Source of the DNA: Pirellula staleyi DSM 6068
Lineage (GTDB): Bacteria; Planctomycetota; Planctomycetia; Pirellulales; Pirellulaceae
DNA: 32,000 bases
Direction: 5' to 3'
Assembly (NCBI GenBank): GCA_000025185.1
Contig: CP001848.1
Span: forward strand, 1,170,001 to 1,202,000
Shown here: piece after piece, positions 8,918 to 32,000 of the stretch
Position numbering within the stretch: position 1 is the stretch's first letter
Layout of the letters: every line of letters begins with the position of its first letter
The notes under the pieces: generated by a model
Databases searched by the model: none
Seen by the model: only the letters and a program-made list of their open reading frames with translations
Told to the model about the DNA's origin: nothing
Made by a program: the position numbers and the translations under genes

Positions 8918-9895
8918 ATGTCCTCTTCGTCCGACAATTCGCTCCCCCGCTTGCCGCGCCTCGGTCTCCCCAACTTGGGGCTGGGCGTTGGGCTGCGGAG
9001 CTCGCATTTTGGCTACCTACTGCGCGAGCAACCAGCAGTCGATTGGCTCGAGGTACTGAGCGAAAACTACCTCGATTCGCAAGGTCGCCCCCGCGCGGTG
9101 GTTCGCACACTAGCCGAGCACTATCCGCTGGTGCTGCATGGCGTTTCTCTCTCGATTGGCAGCACCGATCCGCTGAACTTTGGGTATCTCGAAAAGCTTC
9201 GCGCGCTGGCCGCCGAAACCGAGGCCCGCTGGGTGAGCGATCACTTGTGCTGGACCGGTGTGATGGGGCGCAATTCGCACGATCTGCTTCCCCTCCCCCT
9301 CACCGAAACTTGCCTCGCGCATGTCGCCGCGCGCGTCCATGCGGTGCAAGAGTTCTTGGGTAGGCCGATCGTTCTCGAAAACCCTAGCTCTTACATCACC
9401 TTCGCGCAATCCACGTTAGGTGAAGCAGAGTTCCTGGCTACCCTCTCCCAGCAAACGGGCTGTGGTCTATTATTAGATCTTAATAACGTCTTGGTCTCTT
9501 GCATCAATCATGGATGGGACCCCATTGAGTATTTAGATACCATTCCAGCCGATCGCGTTGTGCAGATGCATTTGGCGGGACATACTAAACTCGCCACGCA
9601 CTTATTAGATACCCACGATGGTCCGGTAATCGATCCCGTTTGGCAGCTCTTTGCCTATGCGACTCAAAAAACCGGAGCCGTTAGTACCCTACTGGAATGG
9701 GACGCTAAAATTCCAGAGTTTCCCGTCGTGCATGCGGAAGTGCTGCGGGCGAAATCGATGATCGAGCAGTACCTCAATCAGTCGGCGGATAGCATTCGCG
9801 CGAGTTGCCGTGAATATGCCAGTCGCGAGGCTTCTGAGCCTCAATCGCTGGCGATTCCACACCCTTCGACACTCGCTACCGCAGAAGTGGAGTAG
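8918..9895 (+). CDS. DUF692-family protein (MNIO: multinuclear non-heme iron oxidative enzyme; the MbnB/TglH/BufB/HvfB family)
   Basis: 325-aa ORF. Family-typical blocks are GLGVGLRSSHF, VDWLEVLSENY, LHGVSLSIGS, WVSDHLCW, VLENPSSY and LLLDLNNV..NHGWD. It also has the HLAGHT...DTHD metal-ligand regions of the TIM-barrel DUF692 fold. Confidence 0.85.
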   Translation: MSSSSDNSLPRLPRLGLPNLGLGVGLRSSHFGYLLREQPAVDWLEVLSENYLDSQGRPRAVVRTLAEHYPLVLHGVSLSIGSTDPLNFGYLEKLRALAAETEARWVSDHLCWTGVMGRNSHDLLPLPLTETCLAHVAARVHAVQEFLGRPIVLENPSSYITFAQSTLGEAEFLATLSQQTGCGLLLDLNNVLVSCINHGWDPIEYLDTIPADRVVQMHLAGHTKLATHLLDTHDGPVIDPVWQLFAYATQKTGAVSTLLEWDAKIPEFPVVHAEVLRAKSMIEQYLNQSADSIRASCREYASREASEPQSLAIPHPSTLATAEVE

Positions 9896-9898
9896 GCT

Positions 9899-10795
9899 GT
9901 GAATCGTCGCGAATTACCGCTGGAAACCTTACAGCAATGGATGCTCACGGCTATTGCGCACCCAGGTGGAATCCGCGCGGGTCTTGATGCTGCGCAGCGC
10001 GCGACGGGCATTCATGCCGAACATCTAAGCTCCTTGATTTCGCCCAGCCAGTGGCAATCTTCCGCCGAGCGACTGGCGGTTTATAACGACGCCTATTTTG
10101 CGCGTCTTTTGGCTTGTATGGTCGAGCTCTTTCCCGCCACAGCCGAGCTTTTAGGTCTCGAAGCCTTTCAAGCCCTTGCAGCGCGCTATTTAGTCACCCA
10201 TCCACCTACCAGTTATTCATTGCATCATCTGCCCGATACCTTTGAAGCCCACTTACAATCGCGCTTGCCCGACGATGATCCGCTCGCGATCTGCGTGCTC
10301 GATATGCTGCGGCTGGAGCGCGCCATCGACCGGGTGTTTGATGGTCCGGGTCTGGAAGAGCAAACGCTCGTGCCGCTGCACGAAAAACTTGCCTCGGTGC
10401 AGCTCGATGAGCTGCTGGCCAGCCGACTCGTGCTCCATCCGAGCTTACAGATTCTCGAGCTGCGCTCGGCGGTGAGTCACTTTTACACCCAGTTTCGCAA
10501 GCAACAGCGTCGCGAGCTGCCTGCGATCTTCAACGCGCCGGAATCGCTCGCCCTGATTCGCCGCCACTACATTGTGCAGCGGGTTCCCCTCTCTCCAGCC
10601 GAGCATCTGCTGATTCGCGCGGCACAGCAGCATCCGCTGGTGAGCGAACTACTCGAGCATCTAGGGGAACTGGCCGAGTCGCAGCAGCGCGACCACAAGC
10701 TGGCCGAGACGGCCCTCGCCGAGCTCCGCCCGATCATGGCGCGGCTGGCTGAAACGGGCGTTTTTTGCGATCTTCACTTCCAGCAGCGCGATTAA
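9899..10795 (+). CDS. DUF2063-domain protein (HvfC/BufC-like partner of DUF692 enzymes)
   Basis: The GTG start lies 3 nt after the DUF692 stop, which implies translational coupling. The N-terminal segment LQQWMLTAIAHP...AERLAVYNDAYFARLLACMVELFPATAELLG..FQALAARYLVTHPPTSYSL matches my memory of the DUF2063 signature (..YRN.....L...L...FP....LLG...F..LA..Y....P). Confidence 0.75.
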   Translation: MNRRELPLETLQQWMLTAIAHPGGIRAGLDAAQRATGIHAEHLSSLISPSQWQSSAERLAVYNDAYFARLLACMVELFPATAELLGLEAFQALAARYLVTHPPTSYSLHHLPDTFEAHLQSRLPDDDPLAICVLDMLRLERAIDRVFDGPGLEEQTLVPLHEKLASVQLDELLASRLVLHPSLQILELRSAVSHFYTQFRKQQRRELPAIFNAPESLALIRRHYIVQRVPLSPAEHLLIRAAQQHPLVSELLEHLGELAESQQRDHKLAETALAELRPIMARLAETGVFCDLHFQQRD

Positions 10796-18780: not shown

Positions 18781-19935
18781 CTAATCCAAGAACTCGCCCG
18801 ATTCGAGCAGTTCAGGAACATATTCCTCGGTGACGTAGCTGATATCTTTGCTGATCAAGGATTCGACTTCGAGTTTGAAGCCGTTCTTGAGCATCATTTC
18901 GATCTCTTTCTGCCACGCCTTTTTCTTGATGAACCAAGGATAGCTGGCGATTTGTTTGGCGCGCTTAATGTCTTGATCGTTGAGCTTGATCTTCACGCTG
19001 CTCGATAGGCCGCAGCGATCGTAGTCCAAACTACGCAGACCCAAATACCGCGCGCCAGGAATCGCCATCCGCTCGGATTCGTAGGCCAGGTTGATCGAGC
19101 CCTGCTTGATCACGCTGTAGATGTAGTAGCCCCACGGATCGTTATCGAGCAAGCAATAGACTGGCAACTTCAGTTCGTTATGCAACCGATAAAGCATCCG
19201 GCGCACGCCGCGCGGAGGCTGTCCCGCACCATGCGTGAGAATGCAGTTGTGCTTGAGCCAAAACTTATCTTCGTTGAAGCGCTGCCAGACTGTATCTTTT
19301 TCGACATGCAGGATGAACTTGGCTTTGACATTCTTAAACGTGATCCGGTCGGGTTCGACGATCGACGGAATGCCGTAGCCACCTGACCCCATGCGTGTGC
19401 AATCGATTTCATCGCCACTATCGACCACGGTGATCTGCCCCACCATTTCGCCGCGTTTTTGCGCGTAGAGATGGAGTTCTTCACGCAGCGAGGAGAGAAG
19501 CACCTCGACATCCTCGATCATCGTGTCGGATTCACTCTGCTCTTCGAAGGTCTCTTCGCTCGTCCCATCGATGGTGTGCTTGAGCATGTAGTACAGACCT
19601 CGAAGGCTCGTGGTCTTGCCTTGCTCGATGAGGCGCTTGCAGCCGCTGCCGACCAGCACTGTTTGCATGAACGCTTTGGCCTGCGACAGGTTGAAGAGTT
19701 CGCGCGATGTTTTGGAGCTTCCCATCTCCAAGATTTTTTGCGACTGGTTGAACTTCACGTTCGACAAGCTGCGACTGAGGATACTCATCTCTGGCGCTGT
19801 CTTTTGCGTAGCGCTTTTGGCGACATCGCTCGCGAGTTTCCTGAGGGAATCGAGCGTCTTCTTATCCTTGTCCGTCAATTTGACCGGTTCGGCAGGTTTA
19901 TTGGCCGGACGCGTATTGGAAGTCTTCTTAGCCAT
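18781..19935 (-). CDS. top6A: DNA topoisomerase VI subunit A (Spo11/Top6A family)
   Basis: 384-aa ORF. The catalytic-tyrosine region is TSLRGLYYMLK. The Toprim acidic residues are in FILHVEKDTVWQRF and YCLLDNDPWGYYIY. The C-terminal KLEVESL block is also present. Length and motif order match archaeal Top6A. Confidence 0.9.
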   Translation of the reverse strand: MAKKTSNTRPANKPAEPVKLTDKDKKTLDSLRKLASDVAKSATQKTAPEMSILSRSLSNVKFNQSQKILEMGSSKTSRELFNLSQAKAFMQTVLVGSGCKRLIEQGKTTSLRGLYYMLKHTIDGTSEETFEEQSESDTMIEDVEVLLSSLREELHLYAQKRGEMVGQITVVDSGDEIDCTRMGSGGYGIPSIVEPDRITFKNVKAKFILHVEKDTVWQRFNEDKFWLKHNCILTHGAGQPPRGVRRMLYRLHNELKLPVYCLLDNDPWGYYIYSVIKQGSINLAYESERMAIPGARYLGLRSLDYDRCGLSSSVKIKLNDQDIKRAKQIASYPWFIKKKAWQKEIEMMLKNGFKLEVESLISKDISYVTEEYVPELLESGEFLD

Positions 19936-20277: not shown

Positions 20278-20736
20278 ATGGAAGCTGACAACTTTGAGTC
20301 TTTTGAAATGGACGTCGCGCCGCAGCAACCTCGGTCTTATCTTCATTTTTTGATTGTTTCGCTGGGACTGCGCTATACCATCGGGCTTCCACTGGTTGCC
20401 CTGCTCTCGTTTATCGCCATTGTCCTACTGCTCCTGTTTGGCAAGAACCGTTATGTGGGTGCTGCCATCCTTACGATTTTGCCCATGGAACCCTTGATGG
20501 GAATGTATGCTTTCGTCGATGGACTGATTGCCTCGTTTCAGGTGATCTCCATGGCAGGCGTTGCTCCCAAGCCGGCAGACATGGCTGAAGGTTTTGCCAT
20601 GTCGCTGGTGGCGACGCTGGTTTCTCTGGCCCTCAGTTGCCCGATCTTTCTCACGGCCGCGGTGGGGCTGTCGATCCGAGCCATCTTGCCCGATACCCAG
20701 CCCGTGGGATCAGCACCATCGAAAACAACCCCCTAA
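20278..20736 (+). CDS. Small polytopic membrane protein with a MotA/TolQ/ExbB-like C-terminal helix pair
   Basis: 152-aa ORF with 3-4 hydrophobic helices. The segment PADMAEGFAMSLVATLVSLALSCPIFL resembles the conserved LA.GI..AL.TT..GL.VAIP stretch of the MotA/ExbB family. It is encoded antisense between top6A and top6B. Confidence 0.5.
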   Translation: MEADNFESFEMDVAPQQPRSYLHFLIVSLGLRYTIGLPLVALLSFIAIVLLLLFGKNRYVGAAILTILPMEPLMGMYAFVDGLIASFQVISMAGVAPKPADMAEGFAMSLVATLVSLALSCPIFLTAAVGLSIRAILPDTQPVGSAPSKTTP

Positions 20737-20785: not shown

Positions 20786-22798
20786 CTACGACGCGGTGAC
20801 GCCACCCTCCTCTTCGTTTTGATTGACGATGAGGACATGCTCGCCAAAATCTTCTTCCTCTTGTTTTTCAATACGGCGGCCGCGATCGTCGAACTTGGCG
20901 TCAGCCTCGGCTGTCTTTTTCTTTGCGACCTGCAAGAGGCTCTCGTAGAGCTTGGTCTTGTCGTGCTTTTCGTCGATGGTGTTGATGGCGGTGGCCACTT
21001 CATTGAGGTAGCGCAGGAAGATGCTGCGGCGCTCTCCCTCTTGCTTCACCTTGTTGCGACGATTGAGGTAGATGCCCAGTTTGCGACCGACAGCTTGCAG
21101 GCCGAGGCGCAACTCTTTTTGGATTTCGGGATAGCCGGCGATTGCTTCTTTGGATTCGCTGGTGAACGGGACCCAAACGCTCGCCATGTGCACCATGATG
21201 GTGAGAGGACCTTGCGGCAACTGGCCGCGCGATTGCGAAACGCCATAGCTGCGCCAGTTGGTGGCGATGACACTTTGCGTGATCGCGCAGGCGGCATGCT
21301 GGAACTGCAGTGGCACGCGATTGGCGTAGCGCAGCACCTGCATCGTTTGCCCTTCGGAGAGGTTCACGTTCCGCATCGCCGCGTGGAGCGTGGCGATTTC
21401 GTCTTTCGTAAGTTTCGATGGGCTTTGGCGTGAGCCGAACTGCGCTTCGCTGAGGATCCGCTCGGAGGCATCGCTCCCGACACCATCGAAAGTGCTCATC
21501 AGGAACTGACGAAGTGTTCGCGCATCGCTTTCGCTCAGGAGCTCGGTGAGCGCTTCGAGCGACACCTTCTGGGCGGCGCTTACGCCACCAAAAGCGAGGC
21601 CGACTTCGATCTGGAACGGATTGCCGCGATAGACGGCGGGTGGACGAGTGGCAGCGGCGTAGAACTCGCCCGGGACCACATGATGCAAACCTTTGAGGAT
21701 CAAAGGTTCGCCGATCGGTGTAATGCAGTCGGTTGCCGGAGCGCTGATTTTGGTGGCCTGGATCGCTTGATAGAGGGCATCGACCTCTTGCCGGCCGATC
21801 CGTTTGCAATTGGCTCGGGTGCTGATTTTGGCCGTATCGCAAATCTCTTTGGCAACACTGGACGACACACGCGAGAACGAGTCGGTGAGGAACTGCGAGA
21901 TGGTGCCAGCGGGGGTGTCTTTGAGCATCGTCACCAAACGGCCCAGCTCGACGCCGTAGGGATGCGGCTTAATTTCTTTCGGTTCTGGGGGCAACTCGGT
22001 GGTGCTTCGGCTGTACGAAATGCTGCCGCCATCGGGATCGAAATAGTGGATCGTGACGTGCGGGTTGGCGATCGCCGTTTGCTCGAGATATTCATCCACG
22101 CTGCCGCGACCACGGATGTATTTCCCCTCGAGCTCGATCGTCACGCTGGTGCCACTCTTCACTTCGGTGGCTGGTTTTTCCCCTTCAGCGGGATACATCG
22201 TTTGCCAGCAAATGCCACGCTTGTCGAGCGTGGTGGCATCGGTTTCGATGTCTTCCCCTTCACCCTTACCGTTGATGATTTCGGGGTGGTTGCGCTTGGT
22301 ATCGATCTGGATTTCGAAGTAGTGCGCAGGTTTTTTCGGCGAGAGCTTGGAGACAATGCGGACCGGCTTGCCGGTGGTGAGCATGCCGTACATGCCAGCG
22401 GCCGAGATACCAATTCCTTGCTGACCGCGGCTCATCCGGAGGCGATGGAATTTGCTGCCGTAGAGGAGCTTGCCGAAAATCAGCGGAATCTGCTTTTTGA
22501 CGATGCCGGGACCGTTGTCTTGCACGGTCACCTGGTAGCGATTGTTGCCGGTCGAAGCCATCGTGACCCAGATTTCGGGAGTGATGCCCGCTTCTTCGCA
22601 CGCATCGAGGCTGTTGTCGACCGCCTCTTTCACCGTGGTGAGGAGCGCCTTGCGCGGATTATCAAAGCCGAGCAGATGGCGGTTCTTGGCGAAGAACTCA
22701 CTGACGGAGATATCGCGCTGCTTGGTCGCCATGCTCTCCGCTGTGGCGCGTCGCTGAGGTGCTTCCGGTGTCGTCGATTCGGAGTTGGCGTCGAGCAT
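20786..22798 (-). CDS. top6B: DNA topoisomerase VI subunit B (GHKL/Bergerat ATPase plus transducer domain)
   Basis: 670-aa ORF. The N-terminal region is ISVSEFFAKNRHLLGFDNPRKALLTTVKEAVDNSLDA (N-box). G1 is DNGPGI and G2 is SRGQQGIGIS. Helix-two-turn-helix and transducer regions follow, with a charged C-terminal tail. Confidence 0.9.
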   Translation of the reverse strand: MLDANSESTTPEAPQRRATAESMATKQRDISVSEFFAKNRHLLGFDNPRKALLTTVKEAVDNSLDACEEAGITPEIWVTMASTGNNRYQVTVQDNGPGIVKKQIPLIFGKLLYGSKFHRLRMSRGQQGIGISAAGMYGMLTTGKPVRIVSKLSPKKPAHYFEIQIDTKRNHPEIINGKGEGEDIETDATTLDKRGICWQTMYPAEGEKPATEVKSGTSVTIELEGKYIRGRGSVDEYLEQTAIANPHVTIHYFDPDGGSISYSRSTTELPPEPKEIKPHPYGVELGRLVTMLKDTPAGTISQFLTDSFSRVSSSVAKEICDTAKISTRANCKRIGRQEVDALYQAIQATKISAPATDCITPIGEPLILKGLHHVVPGEFYAAATRPPAVYRGNPFQIEVGLAFGGVSAAQKVSLEALTELLSESDARTLRQFLMSTFDGVGSDASERILSEAQFGSRQSPSKLTKDEIATLHAAMRNVNLSEGQTMQVLRYANRVPLQFQHAACAITQSVIATNWRSYGVSQSRGQLPQGPLTIMVHMASVWVPFTSESKEAIAGYPEIQKELRLGLQAVGRKLGIYLNRRNKVKQEGERRSIFLRYLNEVATAINTIDEKHDKTKLYESLLQVAKKKTAEADAKFDDRGRRIEKQEEEDFGEHVLIVNQNEEEGGVTAS

Positions 22799-23492: not shown

Positions 23493-23921
23493 ATGGTTCG
23501 AATGCTTGCTATTGCCAGCCTGGCCTTTTCTATCGCCATTGCGACTTCCTACGCCGCCAACGCCCAGGAAGTTTGCGAAAACTGCGAAGAAGGGGCAATT
23601 CAAGGTTGGGCCGGAAATCGTCGCGTTGGTGGAGCTGGCAACAGCTATTCGCCCGGCGGTTGCCAATATCGCGCTTATGGTCAGCCCGACCTGTTCTACA
23701 ACTACTACACCGGCGACAACTGCGGCGCAAACCCCGCTCAGATGTACCTGTCGCCACGTCCAGTTCCAGCGCACGTGGGGCACACCTACATCACCTATCA
23801 GCCCCTGATGCCGCACGAGTTTCTCTACCCTCACCACCGCACCTATCATCGCTACTACAACGGTGGCCAAGGGTTGACCCGCACGAGCGTGCATTACTAT
23901 TCGCCTCTGTTCCGCAAATAA
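23493..23921 (+). CDS. Small secreted Tyr/His/Gly/Pro-rich protein with 4 Cys, unknown function
   Basis: The ATG at 23493 has a strong SD (AAGGAG, 23479-23484). The signal peptide is MVRMLAIASLAFSIAIATSYAANA. The mature part contains CENC, GGCQY and DNCG, plus HVGHTYITYQPLMPHEFLYPHHRTYHRYY. Confidence 0.7.
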   Translation: MVRMLAIASLAFSIAIATSYAANAQEVCENCEEGAIQGWAGNRRVGGAGNSYSPGGCQYRAYGQPDLFYNYYTGDNCGANPAQMYLSPRPVPAHVGHTYITYQPLMPHEFLYPHHRTYHRYYNGGQGLTRTSVHYYSPLFRK

Positions 23922-24042
23922 TCAGCCTGGCAATTGGTTGCTCGGAAACGGTTGAAACTGTTTCCGAGCCGACACTTCCATCCGCTAGCCACTGCCGACT
24001 ACTACTTCACATCCGTCATCGCTCCCCCCGAGGAGATTGGTT

Positions 24043-24426
24043 ATGAAACTCGTTCCAACCGTCGCGCTGCTGGTGGTTGCAGCCGTGCTGGTCACCACCT
24101 TCGCAAGCACTGCCGAAGCTGGTGGACCGCATGGTCGCGCCGACCGTTTGGGTCGCTACTACGCTTCGCAGCGTCCGTGGCACGGCCCTTACGCCCACAC
24201 CAGCTACGGTGCACCGGTGGCCCTGATCGTTCCACCAACGGCCAACATGCACACCAGCTATGCCTGGGGTGTCGCTCAAACCGAAATGGTGCCGATTTAT
24301 CACCAGTTCCGTCGCGACTATCCGGGCGTCAGTGGTGGCGGTGGTGGCTATGGCTACATGCCCACACCTAACTGGCCCAGCCACACCGATCAGTTCGGTG
24401 TCTACCCAGTCCGTGGTCCATGGTAG
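24043..24426 (+). CDS. Small secreted His/Tyr/Pro/Gly/Trp-rich protein, unknown function
   Basis: The ATG at 24043 has SD AGGAG (24031-24035). The signal peptide is MKLVPTVALLVVAAVLVTTFASTAEA. The mature part contains WHGPYAHTSYG, NMHTSYAWG and a GGGGGYGYMP tract. A terminator follows. Confidence 0.7.
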   Translation: MKLVPTVALLVVAAVLVTTFASTAEAGGPHGRADRLGRYYASQRPWHGPYAHTSYGAPVALIVPPTANMHTSYAWGVAQTEMVPIYHQFRRDYPGVSGGGGGYGYMPTPNWPSHTDQFGVYPVRGPW

Positions 24427-24472
24427 TCATTCTGATTTGATTGCTGCAATCACTTCGAATACAAACTAGCGA

Positions 24473-24505
24473 GGCGAAGATTCTTGATGGAATCTTCGCC
24501 TTTTT
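24473..24505 (+). terminator. Rho-independent terminator of the two-gene secreted-protein operon
   Basis: 11-bp stem GGCGAAGATTC / GAATCTTCGCC with a 6-nt loop (ttgatg), followed directly by TTTTT. Confidence 0.8.
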
Positions 24506-25090
24506 CGTTAACCAATTGCTGTATCGATAGTTACACGACCTGCCTGCAACGATCTTGACGACAGTTGGCACGGGCGTTGCTTTAGATCTCTTCCATACCG
24601 CATCGAAAGCGATGTCGCTAACGACGGGTGTGCTTGTGCAAGCCACAAGCCCGGGTTGGGGATGGAAGGAACGCGTCACATGTTCTCGTCACTCATGGTT
24701 GGTCTGGGTTACTTCACGCTGGTGGCCTCGATCTTTTGGCTTTCCCGCCCAGTCCGCACACTCCACCCATTTTAACCTTTCCGTGAACTGGCTCACGTTC
24801 CGACAGCCGGCTGCCGATTCGTAGGGTTAGAGCCTTACCAGTTCTACCTCTCAGGAAATCTGTGTATGCCGGACGGAAAACGTCGGCGTCGACATAGCCA
24901 GAATGTCGCGCGTCGTCAGTGGTATGCCCAGCATCGCTCGCAGCGATTCTGTCGGCGGTTCGGATGGATCCCACCTTCCCCTTCAAGCACATCGCCCCAG
25001 TCGAGATCCTCACGGACGATCCTGGCAGCGGTTGCTGTTTAGTCGGGCAGATCATCAGCCAGAATGCTCGGCCACGAGCTGGGCGGCTAG

Positions 25091-27595
25091 CTATCGCGAT
25101 GATTCGCTGACGATTTGCTCGAACGGCAGCTTCCAAGCGGTGCCATCGAGCCCCGGAGGCGAAGCGAGTAAAAAACTGGCCAGCGCCTTGGCTCCCGCGC
25201 GGTCGCCGAGCCGCAGCTGAGCGGTTGCCACTCGATGTTTGGCACGAAACCAGCGTTCGGTGCGCGGGCGACTCTTCGATGCCACCAGGCGCCACTGCGC
25301 CAGGGCGCGCTCGAGCGAAGTGCGATCGGTGGAATCGAGCAGCAGTTCCGCCAGTGCTTCTTGAACCCGCGCATCTTGCGGATGGCTCTTGGCAAGTTTC
25401 TCGAAAGCGACGAGCGCTTCTTCCCATTTACCAAGCGATGCCAAAGCGCTCGCTTCATGGCGCGAGAGTGTCAGCTGCGACGCGCTGTTTAAACTCGTCG
25501 CGCTACGTCGCCAATGCTCGACAATCGCCAGGCGGACACTCGCCAGTTGCTGCTGATGCTGTTTGCCACCCGCTGGAAAGGTTTCGAGCGTGTCGAGGAG
25601 CGCGGTGAGCGAGAGATCGTCGACCGGGAGTCGCTTCACGAGCTCTTCAGCATCGTCGGCGCGTGCGGGATCACTAGCCATCGCGACCATTTGCCAGCGC
25701 GCAGCCGACGCAGTCCAAGCATCGTCGGGAGCTGGTATCCCCCGCGCACTCGCGGCGAGCATCGACTCGGCCAGCGCTTGCTGCGCGGTGTAGGTGATCA
25801 GCAACTCGGCTGCAGCCAGCACAAGTTCGCGATCGCCAGAACTCCACATCGCTGGAAGTTTTCGCATCGCGCCGAGCAATCGTAGTTCGAACGCTGCCAC
25901 ACTCTCTTTGGCCACCTGCATACGATCGTCGGCTGATGCCTTGATCACGGCAGCGCGAGCACAAGCGATAAGCAGCTGCGTTGCTTCTTCAGCTTTATCA
26001 CTATCGCGCGGAACGAGAGCCGATGCGCGAATAGCCGGGGCCAGCTCGGCGCTGGTGGCAGCCAGTCGCATCCGCCAAATCGCCGCTTGCTGAGCAGACG
26101 CTGCTGTCGGCCAAAGTCGCAAATGCTCGTCGAGCTCGCGTGTGTACTCGGCAAGCACCTCCGCACTACTGCGTGCCGCTTGTGCAAGATTCCACAAGCC
26201 TCGCAAGTGAGCCGTCGATGCTTCGGCGCTAGCAGGATCGCTGGTCGCGAGTGCAACAAATTTTTGAGCGGCTGCCGGATAGCGTTTCTGCTGCTCATCG
26301 ATCATCGCACTCTTGAAAGCAAGCGAGAACGCGCTCGTCAAATCGCCAGCCAGTTTCGCGCTCGCAGCAGCCTCGTCGTAGGCTTGGCGTGCATCCTCGA
26401 GCGAACCTTGCAAGTAGAGTCGATCAGCAGATCGCGCCAGCAGTTCACTCGCCCCGCTCGACGCTTTCGGAAGTGCAGCCAGGAGCAAATTATCGGCGCG
26501 TCGGCCCCAGTAAGCACCATGATTGCTGACGATCGTAGATGTCCACTCAGCCGCTTCACCGGCGATCTCTTTTTGTTCAGCCGAGCTTGCTGGCAACTGC
26601 TTAGCGCGCACGAGCATCAGTTCGAGAATCGCCAGATCGAGTTCTGCCGAACTGCTCCCATCGAGCGTGCGCTCAATCGCTGTCGGATCGGGCAAAACGG
26701 CGTCTTTTCCTAGAAATAACAGCCTTAATGCTTCTGCTCGCGCGTCGAGTCGCACGTCGCGCGGCATCCCTTCTTGGTCGAGCTTGGTGGCCAACTCACT
26801 CGCCTGGGCCACTTCTCCGAGCTGCCGCCAGGCACGAATCAGTTCAAGCGCAACTTCGTTGCGAACAGGATCTTCTTTCGTCAACTTCGTCGAGACAGCG
26901 ACCAAAGTTTCAGCCGCCGAGAGGAGCAGCGCGCGTCGGTCGTTCGACGTTGGTTCATACATCTCGGCACGGAGCAATCGTGCGCGAGCTTGGTGATAGC
27001 CCAGGTGACTTGCCAAGATAAACAGCTCGTCGGCTGTCGGCTCATCGGGTTTAGGTTCGACGCGACGACGCTGAGGAATGTCGATCGTGAGCTTTGCTGC
27101 CAGCGCTTCGATCTCGGTTTCGGCTTGACGTAACGCTGCGAGTGCCGCTTGCTGCTGCGCTGGAAGCCGCGAACTCATCGCTCCTTCCACTACAATCACT
27201 TCACCTCGCGCGAGACTCGTCAGCGCCGCTTGCAGCACAATGGAGGCTTCAAACGGATGCGCTGGATGCGTTTTACGAAATCGATCAGCCTCCGCAATCG
27301 CTTCGTCGAACTTCTCGGCACGCTCGGCTCCCGAGAGTTCGAGGGCGTGAAGCCCCAGTGTGCGCATCAATTCTTCTAGCGCTACGGCTTGCTCGCGAGC
27401 ACTCAAGTTCGTCGTTTGCAACTGATCGCGGCAAACACGTTCTGCCAGTTCGTACAGCCGTCGACTTCGTAGCGCAATCACGAGCGAGCGCTCATCAGCC
27501 GCCACATCCGATGGGGTTATCAGCAGCCAAGCAGCCAGTGCAATTGCATGCGCCCAGACAGCAAAATGATCACGCGAGAAAGGTCGCATCGTCAT
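25091..27595 (-). CDS. Large (834 aa) all-alpha, TPR-like repeat protein with an N-terminal signal/anchor; last gene of the ExbBD operon
   Basis: Its ATG overlaps the upstream ExbD stop (ATGA at 27592-27595). The N-terminal hydrophobic segment is FAVWAHAIALAAWLLITPSDVAA. The remainder is Ala/Leu/Arg/Glu-rich helical-repeat sequence with no catalytic motif. Confidence 0.7.
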   Translation of the reverse strand: MTMRPFSRDHFAVWAHAIALAAWLLITPSDVAADERSLVIALRSRRLYELAERVCRDQLQTTNLSAREQAVALEELMRTLGLHALELSGAERAEKFDEAIAEADRFRKTHPAHPFEASIVLQAALTSLARGEVIVVEGAMSSRLPAQQQAALAALRQAETEIEALAAKLTIDIPQRRRVEPKPDEPTADELFILASHLGYHQARARLLRAEMYEPTSNDRRALLLSAAETLVAVSTKLTKEDPVRNEVALELIRAWRQLGEVAQASELATKLDQEGMPRDVRLDARAEALRLLFLGKDAVLPDPTAIERTLDGSSSAELDLAILELMLVRAKQLPASSAEQKEIAGEAAEWTSTIVSNHGAYWGRRADNLLLAALPKASSGASELLARSADRLYLQGSLEDARQAYDEAAASAKLAGDLTSAFSLAFKSAMIDEQQKRYPAAAQKFVALATSDPASAEASTAHLRGLWNLAQAARSSAEVLAEYTRELDEHLRLWPTAASAQQAAIWRMRLAATSAELAPAIRASALVPRDSDKAEEATQLLIACARAAVIKASADDRMQVAKESVAAFELRLLGAMRKLPAMWSSGDRELVLAAAELLITYTAQQALAESMLAASARGIPAPDDAWTASAARWQMVAMASDPARADDAEELVKRLPVDDLSLTALLDTLETFPAGGKQHQQQLASVRLAIVEHWRRSATSLNSASQLTLSRHEASALASLGKWEEALVAFEKLAKSHPQDARVQEALAELLLDSTDRTSLERALAQWRLVASKSRPRTERWFRAKHRVATAQLRLGDRAGAKALASFLLASPPGLDGTAWKLPFEQIVSESSR

Positions 27596-28047
27596 CGCTC
27601 CGTGGCTGCGAAGCGAACTTGCGAGAATCCAGCAAGGCGCGCACGATCATACACATCGATCGCATTTCCGAGCGGAATTTCCGCATCAGGATGCACAATC
27701 ACCGGCACATCCGACTTAATCGCAGCCAGGGTTGCAAGCGCCGACTCGAGCGCCACGAGCGACACTTGGGGCACATCATTGAGCAGCACGGTTTGCGAAC
27801 TTTCGTCGCCAATCAGCCGCACCACCACCTGGTCGAAGTCGGCTTCCGGAGGAGGTGGTTCGTTGGTCGGTGTACTGCTACCCGCAACTGGTGATGTCAC
27901 CTGCACACTTCCGGGAATCGACTGCTCGGCGATTTCGAAACTACTGCTCCAGATGAAATAGACCATCAGTAGAAAGACACAATCGATCATGGGCGTCAGC
28001 TGCAACTCGACTTGTTCACGACGCGATCGCGAGGATGGAAGCTTCAC
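27592..28047 (-). CDS. Biopolymer transport protein ExbD/TolR, paralog 2
   Basis: Its GTG start overlaps the upstream ExbD stop (GTGA at 28044-28047). The TM signature LTPMIDCVFLLMVYF retains the conserved Asp. The periplasmic domain ends in IPLGNAIDVYDRARLAGFSQVRF. Confidence 0.85.
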   Translation of the reverse strand: MKLPSSRSRREQVELQLTPMIDCVFLLMVYFIWSSSFEIAEQSIPGSVQVTSPVAGSSTPTNEPPPPEADFDQVVVRLIGDESSQTVLLNDVPQVSLVALESALATLAAIKSDVPVIVHPDAEIPLGNAIDVYDRARLAGFSQVRFAATER

Positions 28048-28472
28048 GGCTGAGCCTCCTCGGGATAGACGGCGTAGGTCACATTCCAGATGTTCAGCTT
28101 CGCGCAGCGCAGCAGCAGGGGCTCGATATGTTTGTAAACCGTCCCTCGATCGCTGCGCAGTCGAACCTCGAGCTTCTCGCCAATTTCCGAGCGGCGCGCT
28201 GCGAGAAGTTGCTCGACATCATCGACCGACATCGTCCGGCCTTGTGCCATCAACTCACCACTGGCCAGCACGCTGATCGTCAAACGCGTATCGCTCGACT
28301 CGCGATCATCTTCACCTGAACGCGCGATCGGAAGTGGCAACTCGAGCTGCGATTCGCGCTTGGCTAAGTGACTCGACACCAAGAAGAAAATGATCAGCTG
28401 AAACACCACGTCGATCATCGGCGTCATGTTGAAACCGACACCACTGCTGGCTGTCATACTGGGAATACGCAT
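28044..28472 (-). CDS. Biopolymer transport protein ExbD/TolR, paralog 1
   Basis: ATG at complement 28470-28472. The TM signature NMTPMIDVVFQLIIFFLV retains the conserved Asp. The periplasmic domain contains LEVRLRSDRGTVYKHIEPLL..CAKLNI. Confidence 0.85.
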   Translation of the reverse strand: MRIPSMTASSGVGFNMTPMIDVVFQLIIFFLVSSHLAKRESQLELPLPIARSGEDDRESSDTRLTISVLASGELMAQGRTMSVDDVEQLLAARRSEIGEKLEVRLRSDRGTVYKHIEPLLLRCAKLNIWNVTYAVYPEEAQP

Positions 28473-28484
28473 GATGCTTGAACC

Positions 28485-29387
28485 TCAAGAACGTGCCGTT
28501 TTTCCCGGAGAATTCGCAGGTGGTGGAGGTGGCGGTGGAGGGGGAACCACACTCGCCGATCGACGCTTGAGTGGCGACACCGCATGCTGGGCGGCATAAG
28601 CAGCCTCGGCAATAAATTGATCAACCCGATTCCGAAAAATTGCAAAAGCGCCGAGCGATGGAATGGCGATGATCAGCCCCACCACAGTAGTGACGAGCGC
28701 TTGATAGATGCCATCGGCCAGTTGCGCTGCACCAGCATTTCCTTCCGAGTCAGCCACTTCTTTGAAGGCAAGAAGCATACCGGTGACCGTTCCCAAGAGC
28801 CCCACCATCGGCGCGATGTTACCAACCACCGAGAGATACTCGACCTTCCGAAACAATCGAGCCGACTGTTCGGCGGTGGCATCTTCCATCGCTTTTTCTA
28901 CTTCGCTGTAACCACCCTCAGCTTCCGCCAGACCGTAGAGCATGACGAACGCGAGGAGCGATGGCCGCTTGCGACAAAGCTCGGCCGCTTCACTCAGTCG
29001 GCCACTTCCCACGAGCGCTCGTGTCTCTTCACCAAGCCCATCGGGAATCAGTTCACTCCGTCGCAAGATCATCAGATTGTCGAACACCAGATACGCGGCT
29101 GTGAGCGAGAGCCCGATCAGCACGAGCATGATGATGACACCGACAGGTCCCCCCGAGAACAGAATCTGAAAAAACGATTTGCTCGGCTTTTCCGCAGGAG
29201 CCTCCGGCGCAGCAGCAGGCTGAGTCGCAGTCACTGGCGGAGTAGGAGCCACTTCTTGCGCGTCGACTTTCACAGTTAACAGGAACGTCAGCAGCACACC
29301 GAACACAAGCACGATAAACCGATCCAAGCGAACCTCCTGATAGCGAGTCGCGCAGCGAGGAACTTGCTCGCGATCGTCACTCACCAT
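28485..29387 (-). CDS. MotA/TolQ/ExbB proton-channel protein with a signal peptide, a Pro/Ala-rich periplasmic extension and a C-terminal poly-proline tail
   Basis: I prefer the ATG at 29387 (track TTG at 29408). The conserved block is LSVVGNIAPMVGLLGTVTGMLLAFK...LADGIYQALVTTVVGLIIAIPSL. The C-terminus is VVPPPPPPPPPANSPGKTARS. Confidence 0.85.
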   Translation of the reverse strand: MVSDDREQVPRCATRYQEVRLDRFIVLVFGVLLTFLLTVKVDAQEVAPTPPVTATQPAAAPEAPAEKPSKSFFQILFSGGPVGVIIMLVLIGLSLTAAYLVFDNLMILRRSELIPDGLGEETRALVGSGRLSEAAELCRKRPSLLAFVMLYGLAEAEGGYSEVEKAMEDATAEQSARLFRKVEYLSVVGNIAPMVGLLGTVTGMLLAFKEVADSEGNAGAAQLADGIYQALVTTVVGLIIAIPSLGAFAIFRNRVDQFIAEAAYAAQHAVSPLKRRSASVVPPPPPPPPPANSPGKTARS

Positions 29388-29458
29388 TTCCTGAAGACTT
29401 GCAAACAACTTGATGCGCCTTCACTCAATAAGTATTTAGAAACTTTTGACAAGTAAGG

Positions 29459-30508
29459 TCACTTTGGTGGCGGTTTTGTCGCATCGAGCCGACTTTGTCC
29501 TTCGCGTGCGGCTGCAGTCGCCGGGAAGTCGGTGACAAGCTCTTTCCAAAGTGATTTTGCCTGCTCCAAACGCCCCAATTTGTCGAGCTGCTTACCGGCG
29601 GCGAGTAGCGCATCGGCTGCCAGTGCAGCATGCTCGCGATGCTCCAGAGCCGCTCGCAAATAGGCAATCGCTGCTTGCTCCGACTCTCCCACGCGCGCTA
29701 GTCCCTCCCCCACAACATACCAGCCGACTCCCTGCACTTCGCGGGGCATGCCGATTAGCTGCTGTTTCCAGCGTGTGACATCTTCGGGCTTGGCCGTGAC
29801 CACTTGCGTCCGCCAGCGCTGTTGCCAGGCCAGCGCCGCTACACGCGGATCAGCGTCGCTCGACAAACTAGCCAGCTGCTCGATAGCCTGCGCGCGCTGC
29901 TTTGTCGCTAAGAGCCAACTTGCTCCCATCACACGCACCAGAGCATCGCGCGATTGACTCCACTGCGTTGCGGCTGCCTCTTGCGGCGCAGTGAGCGATG
30001 CCCCTTTCCATGCGACCGGTGTTAGCGGCGCGAAGATCGTTTCGGGATCGCTGGCTAGCAGCACGCGAAACTCTTCCCCCGCGCGATCCCACTGCTCGAG
30101 CTCCAGATGACCGCGCACCATATCGGCGGTGATCTCGCGAATCACAAAAGCGCGCGACTCATCGCGCCGCGCTTGCCGCAAGCGATCGATGGCCGACTCG
30201 ATATTTCCCGCGCTCAGCTCCGCAAGCGCTTCGCGATGTAGCGCCGAGCGCGTGAAGCTGATGCTACGAACACGCGCGGCAGGAAACTCTTCGACACTTC
30301 CCGTGGGAACTTGCAGCTTTAGCAAACGCCCCGTGTAGTCGACGATTCGGCCGGTGCGTGTCGTCAGCAGATCGCTCGATGTCGACGCCGTCATCGTTAC
30401 ACGGTCGAGTTCATCGGACGATGTGGGGACCTCTTGCGCCACGCACTGCGCTGCGGCGACGACAACGCACAGCACCCCTAATAACAGCGTTTTCCCAGTG
30501 TTTTTCAC
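29459..30508 (-). CDS. Secreted protein with a small N-terminal beta domain and C-terminal TPR-like helical repeats
   Basis: The GTG at 30508 yields an ideal signal peptide, (M)KNTGKTLLLGVLCVVVAAAQCVAQE. The alternative GTG at 30559 lies only 4 nt after the vWA stop. The C-terminal half is helical repeat (AIAYLRAALEH..., LEQAKSLWKELVTDFP). Confidence 0.65.
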   Translation of the reverse strand: MKNTGKTLLLGVLCVVVAAAQCVAQEVPTSSDELDRVTMTASTSSDLLTTRTGRIVDYTGRLLKLQVPTGSVEEFPAARVRSISFTRSALHREALAELSAGNIESAIDRLRQARRDESRAFVIREITADMVRGHLELEQWDRAGEEFRVLLASDPETIFAPLTPVAWKGASLTAPQEAAATQWSQSRDALVRVMGASWLLATKQRAQAIEQLASLSSDADPRVAALAWQQRWRTQVVTAKPEDVTRWKQQLIGMPREVQGVGWYVVGEGLARVGESEQAAIAYLRAALEHREHAALAADALLAAGKQLDKLGRLEQAKSLWKELVTDFPATAAAREGQSRLDATKPPPK

Positions 30509-30563
30509 GTCTACGGAAACTTTCGTCGCAGTCGTTCTTGCTATAGCAAGCAACTTCACATCC

Positions 30564-31580
30564 CTACCGCGCGGGGAGACTTGTCACGTCGATGTACCGA
30601 TGTTCGCCACCATTTTCTTTCGCGATCTGCTGCAGAAAATTCCACCGCGATGCCTTGGGACCTGCGCCGAACTCGATCGCGTGGATGGTGGTTCCGCGAT
30701 TCATCCGATGAATCGATTCGAGCTCTTCAGGCCGGAGCGCGGGCTCGTCGGCATCGGTCAAAAAGAAGATCACGTCGGGGTCGAGCTTCAGCGCCATCTT
30801 CAGCGGCACCAGATGCTCAGTTCCTCCCGACGCCACAATGCCACGCACAAACCGCTGGGCCAACTCTTTGTCGCGCTCGTTGCCGAAGAACAACTGCAGG
30901 CTTTGCCCACGAAATGGATTCATCACCTCGGGGCGTTCGTTGTAGAAGATGATCTGGAATTGATGCACGTTGCCCAGATGCGAGATGCTTTCGATCAGCT
31001 GCTCTTTCGCGGCGGCGATGGGACGACCACCATAGCCTTCCATACTGCCGCTACGATCAAACACATAAACGAAACGGCTCCCTTTTCCGGTGATCCCAAA
31101 CACCTGGGTCTCGGCCTCGCTACCGTTGCCAACACCGGGCCGCGTCCCTTTTCCACCACCACCACGGACCGCTTCCGAGGCACCAGGAATCGCCATCGCC
31201 TCGAGCGCCGCGCCACTGGCCTGCTCTCCTGTCGGAAGCTGGGGACCTGGCAAATCGCTCGGTAAAATTTCGGGAAGTGCCGCAGCAGCGGCTGAAGCAT
31301 CGGCGCTGCTCAGCGACGTGTCGGGCGATAGTGGCCCTGCCGCTGCTTCTTCGGAAAAGTATTCGGTTTTGCCAGCGGTTTGTTTCACAATCACGATGCC
31401 GCCATCGCGCAGTGGAATCCCTAGACTCGCCGATCGACGCGGAGCATCTTGCACCACCACAGCCAAAGTGGTGATGACGGTGAAATGCAACCCAAGCGAG
31501 AGGAGCCACGCTGGGATGCCGCGCGATTTGGTCGCAAGTGGCTCGAGCGGCGCTGGCCTCTCGATTTCGCTCGATCTCAT
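30564..31580 (-). CDS. Membrane-anchored von Willebrand factor A (vWA/MIDAS) protein with TonB/TolA-like topology
   Basis: I prefer the ATG at 31580 (track TTG at 31688). There is a single TM helix, IPAWLLSLGLHFTVITTLAVVV. An Ala/Pro/Ser/Gly-rich linker of ~90 aa follows. The vWA domain has a complete MIDAS: DRSGSM (DxSxS), ASGGTE (Thr) and FFLTDADE (Asp). Confidence 0.8.
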   Translation of the reverse strand: MRSSEIERPAPLEPLATKSRGIPAWLLSLGLHFTVITTLAVVVQDAPRRSASLGIPLRDGGIVIVKQTAGKTEYFSEEAAAGPLSPDTSLSSADASAAAAALPEILPSDLPGPQLPTGEQASGAALEAMAIPGASEAVRGGGGKGTRPGVGNGSEAETQVFGITGKGSRFVYVFDRSGSMEGYGGRPIAAAKEQLIESISHLGNVHQFQIIFYNERPEVMNPFRGQSLQLFFGNERDKELAQRFVRGIVASGGTEHLVPLKMALKLDPDVIFFLTDADEPALRPEELESIHRMNRGTTIHAIEFGAGPKASRWNFLQQIAKENGGEHRYIDVTSLPAR

Positions 31581-31793
31581 TGGCGGATGCGACACAGAAG
31601 TGGATCCTGCCTCAAGCGAGCGCGAAGGATGTGAAGAAACCCACTCGCGCGCGATGTATCGACAAAACTCGCACGCAGGCGTGGCCAAACAGACTCGGCC
31701 CGCGCGAATTCTAGGGAGATTAGCCGCTCGGGGTCAATCCGAACGTCGAGGCAACTGCTAGCGTCGCCTCGCCGCTGCGACTCACCCGCCCAA

Positions 31794-32000
31794 CTACTGC
31801 CGAGCCGACTTCCAGCCCGAATCGTCCCAAATCTCTTCGTTTTGCACCACCGGTGCGGCCACCGCGTGGGTCGGAGCCGACAGCGAAACCTCGCTCGCGT
31901 GGGCGGGAATTTCGTAGCTCATCTTCCGCTGCATGCTCGCCGCGCGATGTTCCGAGGGTCGGCCATACACAGCAGGCACAACCTGCCAGCGGGGATCACG
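31794..32000 (-). CDS. C-terminal end of an unidentified protein whose start lies beyond the right window edge
   Basis: The reading frame of the 61-aa track ORF stays open upstream to position 32000 (...RDPRWQVVPAVYGRPSEHR...). I recognise no motif, and it may not be coding. Confidence 0.25.
   Translation of the reverse strand, partial: RDPRWQVVPAVYGRPSEHRAASMQRKMSYEIPAHASEVSLSAPTHAVAAPVVQNEEIWDDSGWKSARQ

Follow-up and report, generated by a model that had tools for sequence, protein, structure and literature searches.

A membrane-anchored von Willebrand factor A protein as a candidate TonB/TolA-type partner of a proton-driven motor in Pirellula staleyi

The closest described counterparts of the system considered here, a six-gene operon of Pirellula staleyi DSM 6068 that begins with a gene for a membrane-anchored von Willebrand factor A (vWA) protein, are the ExbB-ExbD-TonB and TolQ-TolR-TolA complexes of Escherichia coli and a class of vWA proteins described computationally in 2025. 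The operon lies on the minus strand of a 32,000-nucleotide stretch of contig CP001848.1 (positions 1,170,001 to 1,202,000), referred to below as the window, and all positions given are positions within it. In E. coli cryo-electron microscopy (cryo-EM) structures, the Ser and His of the TonB anchor helix (S16/H20) pack on S34/W38 of ExbB, which touches P190 in the third transmembrane (TM) helix, TM3, and S18/H22 of TolA use TolQ S28/W32/P187 in the same way. These residues belong to the SHLS signature of the two anchors (TonB PWPTLLSVCIHGAVVAGLLYTS, TolA AIIISAVLHVILFAALIWSS), which a previous sequence-only reading of the window had quoted correctly according to the cryo-EM paper, TolA also being re-derived from NC_000913. 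The same paper finds the Leu and Ser of SHLS less conserved in TonBs as well.

The 2025 study ('Origin and Evolution of Bacterial Periplasmic Force Transducers', Mol Biol Evol; PMC12204202) proposes vWA force transducers tethered to the inner membrane, each made up of a TM helix with an SHLS motif, a motor box, a domain II of ~100 residues and a C-terminal vWA domain. The seed protein came from Tichowtungia aerotolerans, and the class is reported from Proteobacteria, Planctomycetes, Verrucomicrobia, Bacteroidetes and Rhodothermaeota, including species without recognisable TolA or TonB. In the AlphaFold3 models of that study, the conserved His occupies the motor site used by TonB and TolA. vWA partners go unmentioned in a 2026 review of the Ton and Tol motors.

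The Pirellula locus matches this class feature by feature, with Ser and His in the TM helix, a strand beyond it, a disordered linker, a vWA fold and the gene set of the Planctomycetes-Verrucomicrobia-Chlamydiae group. The class having been described computationally in 2025, the locus is not a new concept, and its kind is already known as a computational proposal. The gene order differs from the published one, as in Pirellula it runs vWA, tetratricopeptide repeat (TPR), motor, second large TPR, and the Tichowtungia locus has two transducers where the window has one vWA gene. What is added here are conservation figures, the missing fourth Ser of SHLS, an invariant Trp and Pro ahead of the first Ser, the sequence of the strand motif, the invariance of the metal ion-dependent adhesion site (MIDAS), and a replacement of the Trp of motor TM1 by Ala with a Tyr after it; the accessible text of PMC12204202 does not state the absent fourth Ser, the change from Trp to Ala plus Tyr in TM1 or the anchor Trp three residues ahead of Ser (S-3).

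We regard it as probable that the proton-driven 5:2 motor of the downstream genes has the vWA protein as its partner of the TonB/TolA type. This is the relationship that the sequence-only reading had proposed when it described the protein as the energy-receiving partner of the adjacent motor, and the conservation of the anchor, its in-register alignment with TonB and TolA, the synteny, a D-box-like motif and the motor residues all argue for it.

Compared with TonB (PDB 9ddo), the protein would share an N-in single TM helix with S-x3-H-x6-L at the same depth, followed 10–20 residues further on by a beta-strand motif and then by a flexible linker, and the two motors have the TM Asp, the Thr ring, the TM1 Ser and the TM3 Pro in common. 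Unlike TonB, it ends in a MIDAS-type vWA domain and not in the TonB C-terminal domain, hence its ligand would not be a TonB box; its anchor also lacks the last Ser of SHLS, Ala and Tyr replace Trp38 in the motor, and two different ExbD-like subunits stand in place of a homodimer. TolA (PDB 9k49, 9ddm) gives the best in-register profile match to the vWA anchor, and the likeness to Tol extends to motor scores that lean towards TolQ/TolR and to a CpoB/YbgF-like TPR protein in the operon. In contrast to Tol, the vWA locus contains no TolA domain III, TolB or Pal, all NCBIfam scores fall far below the equivalog cut-offs, and the linker is predicted to be disordered where TolA has a long helix. Planctomycetes are reported to lack Pal, and the window as a whole encodes no recognisable TolA or TonB.

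Two further systems link a vWA domain to a TolQR-type motor, the TPH-vWA proteins paired with tolQ only (PMC12204202) and CglB of the Myxococcus Agl-Glt machinery. TPH-vWA proteins are described as having no SHLS motif, carrying Asp in a TolR-like helix and replacing tolR, whereas in Pirellula the anchor contains Ser and His but lacks Asp, and the operon includes two tolR-like genes. CglB is an outer-membrane lipoprotein vWA adhesin and not a partner anchored in the inner membrane.

Anchor helix, post-anchor strand and vWA domain

Read directly from the minus-strand codons, the TM helix of the vWA protein has its Ser, His and Leu in the S-x3-H-x6-L spacing, with the His codon where the sequence-only reading had placed it (Table 1). 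That reading was also right to limit the match to the first three positions of SHLS, the fourth (H+11) being Val43. AlphaFold2 predicts the helix at residues 24–42 with a predicted local distance difference test (pLDDT) score of >90.

The two polar residues are conserved without exception. A search found 1999 homologues of the vWA protein, and Ser28 and His32 are invariant in the best 120 of them (43–77% identity), in 79/79 species-representative genome loci having the N-terminus, and in all 265 proteins obtained when 145 cluster representatives from an anchor-profile search are added to the 120, although S-x3-H was part of the search profile, which in part accounts for its presence in these 145. 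Leu occupies H+7 in 102/120 and 200/265 proteins, the other residues there being I, A, F, G, M or V, so that a comparison of orthologues, as the sequence-only reading had suggested, leaves Ser and His invariant and Leu at 75–85%. Ahead of the Ser, a Trp stands at S-3 in 259 of 262 proteins and a Pro at S-5 in 244 of about 258 (~95%). The background was taken from ~900 crude open reading frames (ORFs) of 81 planctomycete loci and the window, vWA orthologues excluded, where S-x3-H occurred in 4 and S-x3-H-x6-L in 1 of 722 TM-like hydrophobic segments of unrelated proteins. The motif in the vWA family is not a chance occurrence; the invariant Ser and His and the 1/722 background rate bear out the earlier view that it was unlikely to be accidental.

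When the anchor profile (A2, 43 sequences) was aligned using hhalign with residues 1–71 of E. coli TonB and 1–76 of TolA, both fell in register. On TonB, LLSLGLHFTVITTL aligned with LLSVCIHGAVVAGL, bringing the motif onto S16, H20 and L27 (P = 0.008, probability 5%), and on TolA, AWLLSLGLHFTVITTLA aligned with AIIISAVLHVILFAALI, bringing it onto S18, H22 and L29 (P = 6e-4, probability 28%).

A second conserved motif, resembling a D-box or motor box, follows the helix. R58 is present in 119/120 sequences, G61 in 103, I62 in 102, V63 in 106, L64 in 116 and Y74 in 118. AlphaFold2 models a beta-hairpin here at low confidence (residues 65–74, strands 65–68 and 71–74, pLDDT ~56–59). The GGIVLV strand lies 15–22 residues past the helix, as against 10–15 for the TonB D-box (SVTM, 46–49) and the TolA R-box. 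Searched against 1.84 billion proteins, a profile of anchor plus strand retrieved 375 cluster representatives at E ≤1e-3, 126 of them at E ≤1e-10. The best 150 of the 375 were 315–385 amino acids long or fragments, apart from one of 535, and all full-length ones carried DxSxS; none of these 150 had the module on another architecture such as TonB_C. Judged from these matches, the anchor-plus-strand module in its specific form is tied to the vWA architecture and sits almost only on vWA proteins of about 340 residues.

In the AlphaFold2 model, built from the 120-sequence alignment (pLDDT 78 overall), the linker of residues 75–155 is predicted to be disordered, with pLDDT <50 over 82–146, and is weakly conserved in the same alignment. 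Beyond it, Foldseek matched the C-terminal domain to the vWA domain of ITIH1 (6fpy, 2e-11), and also to calcium-channel alpha2delta and CLCA1, while Pfam VWA_2 scored just below its gathering score (1.4e-5, 26.1 bits against 27). The MIDAS is complete, and D175, S177, S179, T254 and D276 are all invariant in the 120 sequences. No TonB_C or TolA model of Pfam or NCBIfam matched the protein.

The operon and its motor

The six genes follow in the order vWA, TPR, TolQ/ExbB-like, two TolR/ExbD-like and large TPR, with gaps of 4, 50, 12, -4 and -4 nucleotides, the second ExbD-like gene overlapping both of its neighbours by 4 nucleotides. The ExbD Pfam model scores the two paralogues at 70.6 and 68.7 bits. 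Residues 281–358 of the 366-residue TPR protein match the NCBIfam model tol_pal_ybgF (YbgF/CpoB) at 2.9e-9, with 37.6 bits against a cut-off of 90.

The vWA protein has relatives in 475 GTDB species genomes; the 80 highest-ranking all belong to Planctomycetota, most of them to Pirellulaceae. Among the 59 loci whose sequence runs on for at least 5 kb downstream, an ExbB-like gene follows on the same strand in 52, together with an ExbD-like gene in 50; two distinct ExbD-like genes are present in 48, the first TPR gene in 50 and the large TPR gene in at least 30. The sequence-only reading had called the anchor motif the strongest sequence-level argument for an energy-receiving partner. Its rank is debatable, as the synteny and the D-box-like motif carry about the same weight.

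The motor itself was examined by aligning 64 planctomycete subunits with E. coli TolQ and ExbB from NC_000913. The key residues of the Pirellula ExbB-like subunit are S101, A105, Y106, T207, T241 and P250. The TM1 Ser (S101), the TM3 Pro (P250) and both pore threonines (equivalents of T145/T178) are invariant in 64/64 subunits, and neither ExbD paralogue has lost the proton-binding TM Asp (present in 59/59 and 54/54 orthologues). The residue directly after the TM1 Trp position is Tyr in 59/64 subunits, so the aromatic is shifted by one. By these residues the motor looks functional, with two of the three residues of the docking network kept. The Trp-to-Ala change with Tyr after it, together with the invariant Trp on the anchor, suggests that the interface between anchor and motor TM1 may be re-wired.

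Scores against NCBIfam models were 86.5 bits for TolQ (cut-off 221), 55.3 for ExbB (206) and 41.2 for TolR (127). Lying far below every equivalog cut-off, they place the motor in neither Ton nor Tol and so, by profile score, in a third branch. The YbgF/CpoB match and the lean of the scores towards TolQ/TolR hint at a Tol-like rather than a Ton-like ancestry.

The ExbB-like protein also has an N-terminal extension (29130-29408, minus strand) in which a signal-peptide-like sequence, LVFGVLLTFLLTVKVDA, is followed by a Pro/Ala-rich stretch before TM1, and which resembles the periplasmic extensions of 'long ExbB' proteins described for Serratia. As the ORF begins at TTG, the true start codon is uncertain.

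Alternatives and a possible mechanism

Several observations weigh against the vWA protein being a motor partner of the TonB/TolA type. The fourth Ser of SHLS was never found in the 265 proteins, H+11 being V, L or I. On the motor side, the TM1 Trp position is Ala in 48/64 subunits and otherwise V, L or M, and the subunits score nearer to TolQ/TolR than to ExbB/ExbD models. No covariation was detected between the anchor Trp at S-3 and the Ala/Tyr positions of motor TM1 in 62 locus pairs, because the anchor and motor positions are both nearly invariant. About 10 of the 59 loci are split by unrelated genes (L079, L015, L016, L033, L039, L064, L065, L067, L078 and L081) and hold vWA and TPR genes only, vWA alone, or vWA, TPR and ExbB without ExbD; L079 (4349-10487) has vWA, large TPR and topoisomerase VI B genes, the motor being missing at the locus. 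All of them keep S-x3-H, which shows only that adjacency of the vWA and motor genes is not obligatory. Profile searches were also weak. The anchor profile found neither TonB nor TolA at E up to 10 by hmmsearch against all PDB sequences, which include both at full length; the sole match of this anchor-plus-strand profile was a spurious repeat protein (E = 0.2), and the first 80 residues of the protein matched no TonB_N or TolA model of Pfam or NCBIfam. With the low hhalign probabilities, this means that homology to TonB or TolA cannot be claimed statistically. The comparison with TonB and TolA profiles proposed in the sequence-only reading thus gave the exact register but not a significant match, and the resemblance, as these alignments present it, is one of motif and architecture and not demonstrable homology. 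The positive-inside test was uninformative, K+R being balanced before and after the helix (2.1 vs 2.2), hence charge leaves the helix orientation undecided, and it is taken from the analogy and from the export of the partner proteins. Finally, PMC12204202 states that no deletion phenotypes are reported for vWA transducers.

The motor without the Trp that packs on His in E. coli, the lack of anchor-motor covariation and the genomes that keep S-x3-H with non-adjacent motor genes would all fit an arrangement in which vWA protein and motor share an envelope pathway but do not touch through the TM helix, with Ser, His and Trp serving self-association, binding of another membrane protein or sensing. 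We consider this unlikely, since the spacing and helix depth equal those of TonB and TolA exactly, the motor never varies at its TM1 Ser and TM3 Pro, the D-box-like strand is conserved too, and the published AlphaFold3 models put the His at the TonB site. Alternatively, the vWA protein may bind the motor but act as a static tether or regulator, holding or gating it relative to a periplasmic or outer-membrane structure, with the work going to a TPR protein of the operon or to some other factor. The layout of TM helix, D-box, flexible linker and binding domain, which is the same as in both known force transducers, makes this fairly improbable in our view, even though two large exported TPR proteins are co-conserved with the vWA protein, vWA domains are generic protein-protein adaptors and the gating of Ton and Tol motors is still debated; tethering and pulling are indistinguishable from sequence alone. 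That the protein is of the BatA/BatB or MoxR-associated type or part of a Zorya-like defence, with a coincidental motif, is very improbable and effectively refuted by conservation and context. Membrane-anchored vWA proteins are common in bacteria and the motor subunit has a weak generic similarity to ZorA/MotA, but the motif does not vary in the family and turned up once among the 722 background segments. A Bat/MoxR identity was rejected, there being no MoxR AAA+ ATPase, DUF58 or other Bat gene in the six-gene operon, as was a Zorya-like system, for which PADLOC gave no match to the vWA, TPR or ExbD proteins and only a MotA-family match to the motor (E ~1e-4).

The reading preferred here, a TonB/TolA-type partner, comes with a topology in which the helix would be N-in and the vWA domain periplasmic. 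This follows the TonB/TolA analogy and the linker composition; in addition, both TPR proteins and the ExbB-like protein have signal-peptide-like N-termini, and the strand would be bound by ExbD domains, which are periplasmic. We think it likely that the anchor docks on the adjacent motor, and attach less confidence to the full picture of force transduction, which would run as follows. With its N-terminus in the cytoplasm, the anchor helix would sit in the inner membrane and dock against the periphery of the TolQ/ExbB-like pentamer by way of Ser28 and His32, which, by analogy with the E. coli cryo-EM structures, would contact TM1 S101 and its surroundings, which in turn touch TM3 P250. About 15 residues beyond the membrane, the R-x-GGIVLV strand may be taken up by the periplasmic domains of both TolR/ExbD-like subunits by beta-strand addition, much as ExbD takes the TonB D-box. 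The linker of ~80 residues, if disordered as predicted, would carry the predicted vWA fold across the periplasm, where the MIDAS metal could bind an acidic residue of an envelope or outer-membrane ligand, perhaps assisted by both exported TPR proteins. As protons flow through the motor, the bond between vWA domain and ligand would then be pulled on or reoriented. The output could be tethering of the envelope, in a phylum that has no Tol-Pal; other candidates are adhesion or movement on surfaces, and uptake.

A bolder possibility, which we hold to be unlikely, is that the operon is the planctomycetal counterpart of Tol-Pal and a third independent branch of the TonB/TolA type, in which a TolQR-like motor with a heterodimeric TolR pair pulls through a MIDAS bond and the docking interface is re-wired. 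The MIDAS bond may in that case strengthen under load, and the pull on an outer-membrane or cell-wall ligand could serve the upkeep or remodelling of the envelope, or else power adhesion or movement on surfaces.

If vWA proteins are driven by such motors, TonB and TolA would not be the sole route by which inner-membrane energy reaches the outer envelope of Gram-negative-type cells, and their two kinds of working end would be joined by a third, a metal-dependent adhesion domain. Since Pal is reported lacking, the family occurs in species without recognisable TolA or TonB and the window encodes neither, the operon is a candidate for the means by which planctomycetes power upkeep of the envelope, adhesion or uptake. 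The window is of confirmatory value, as it offers a clean, well-conserved example with specific mutable residues, namely S28, H32, the GGIVLV strand, MIDAS D175/S177/S179 and motor S101/Y106/P250.

Features of the operon and the remaining window

Table 1. Coordinates of the vWA operon and of the motifs discussed, as positions in the window.
Feature	Position	Strand	Basis
vWA gene, 338-residue membrane-anchored protein	30564-31580	minus	ORF list
Single TM helix IPAWLLSLGLHFTVITTLAVVV, residues 22-43, with P23, W25, S28, H32, L39	31452-31517	minus	read from codons
Ser28 codon, equivalent of TonB S16 / TolA S18	31497-31499	minus	in-register hhalign
His32 codon (cat), equivalent of TonB H20 / TolA H22	31485-31487	minus	in-register hhalign
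Leu39 codon, equivalent of TonB L27 / TolA L29	31464-31466	minus	in-register hhalign
Post-anchor motif R58-x-G-G-I-V-[LI]-V65 ... G70 ... E73-Y74	31359-31409	minus	conservation; D-box/motor-box-like
Linker (domain II), ~80 residues, Ala/Ser/Pro/Gly-rich	31116-31358	minus	predicted disordered
C-terminal vWA domain, residues 156-338	30567-31115	minus	AlphaFold2 pLDDT >90, Foldseek
MIDAS codons D175-x-S177-x-S179; T254; D276	31044-31058; 30819-30821; 30753-30755	minus	alignment
366-residue exported TPR protein, starting 4 nucleotides past the vWA stop codon	29459-30559	minus	Pfam TPR_6
TolQ/ExbB-like pentamer subunit	28485-29408	minus	Pfam MotA_ExbB 2.6e-27, 95.5 bits, above cut-off
S101, A105, Y106 of ExbB-like TM1	29091-29108	minus	alignment
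First TolR/ExbD-like subunit (TM Asp21 at 28410-28412)	28044-28472	minus	Pfam ExbD 1.7e-19, above cut-off
Second, divergent TolR/ExbD-like subunit (TM Asp22 at 27982-27984)	27592-28047	minus	Pfam ExbD 6.6e-19, above cut-off
834-residue exported TPR protein, last operon gene	25091-27595	minus	weak TPR and BamD-like matches
Promoter-like TTGACC-18-TAGAAT (10 of 12), ~130 nucleotides upstream of the vWA start	31708-31737	minus	sigma-70-like scan

Besides the ATG at 31580, the vWA gene could start at a GTG five codons upstream (31595), and its longest ORF, from a TTG, reaches 31688. With the ATG or the GTG, a tail of 20–26 residues precedes the helix, and such an N-terminal tail is present in every orthologue, so the choice of start codon is not critical for the reading of the anchor. 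The promoter-like site fits the vWA gene being first in the operon, but is only suggestive because its count is not above the shuffled expectation (1 sigma-70-like site found in 24400-32000 vs 1.6 expected).

Outside the operon, a 152-residue ORF with three TM helices (20278-20736, plus strand) matches Pfam MotA_ExbB at 26.8 bits (gathering score 22.9), with no ExbD-like partner nearby. It lies on the opposite strand between the genes for archaeal-type DNA topoisomerase VI A (Spo11/Toprim; 18781-19935, minus strand) and B (20786-22798, minus strand). The topoisomerase VI B gene near the vWA locus in L079 suggests a conserved neighbourhood. Between the operon and the topoisomerase VI B gene, two small His/Tyr/Pro-rich proteins with signal-peptide-like N-termini and no Pfam match are encoded (23493-23921 and 24037-24426, plus strand), followed by a strong terminator-like hairpin at 24471-24502. 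Further away, a gene for an enzyme of the MbnB/TglH/ChrH family (8918-9895, plus strand; E = 6.5e-105), which modifies ribosomally synthesised and post-translationally modified peptides, is followed by one for a DUF2063 protein, the usual MbnC-like partner (9899-10795, plus strand), and the pair may represent a cluster for such a peptide.

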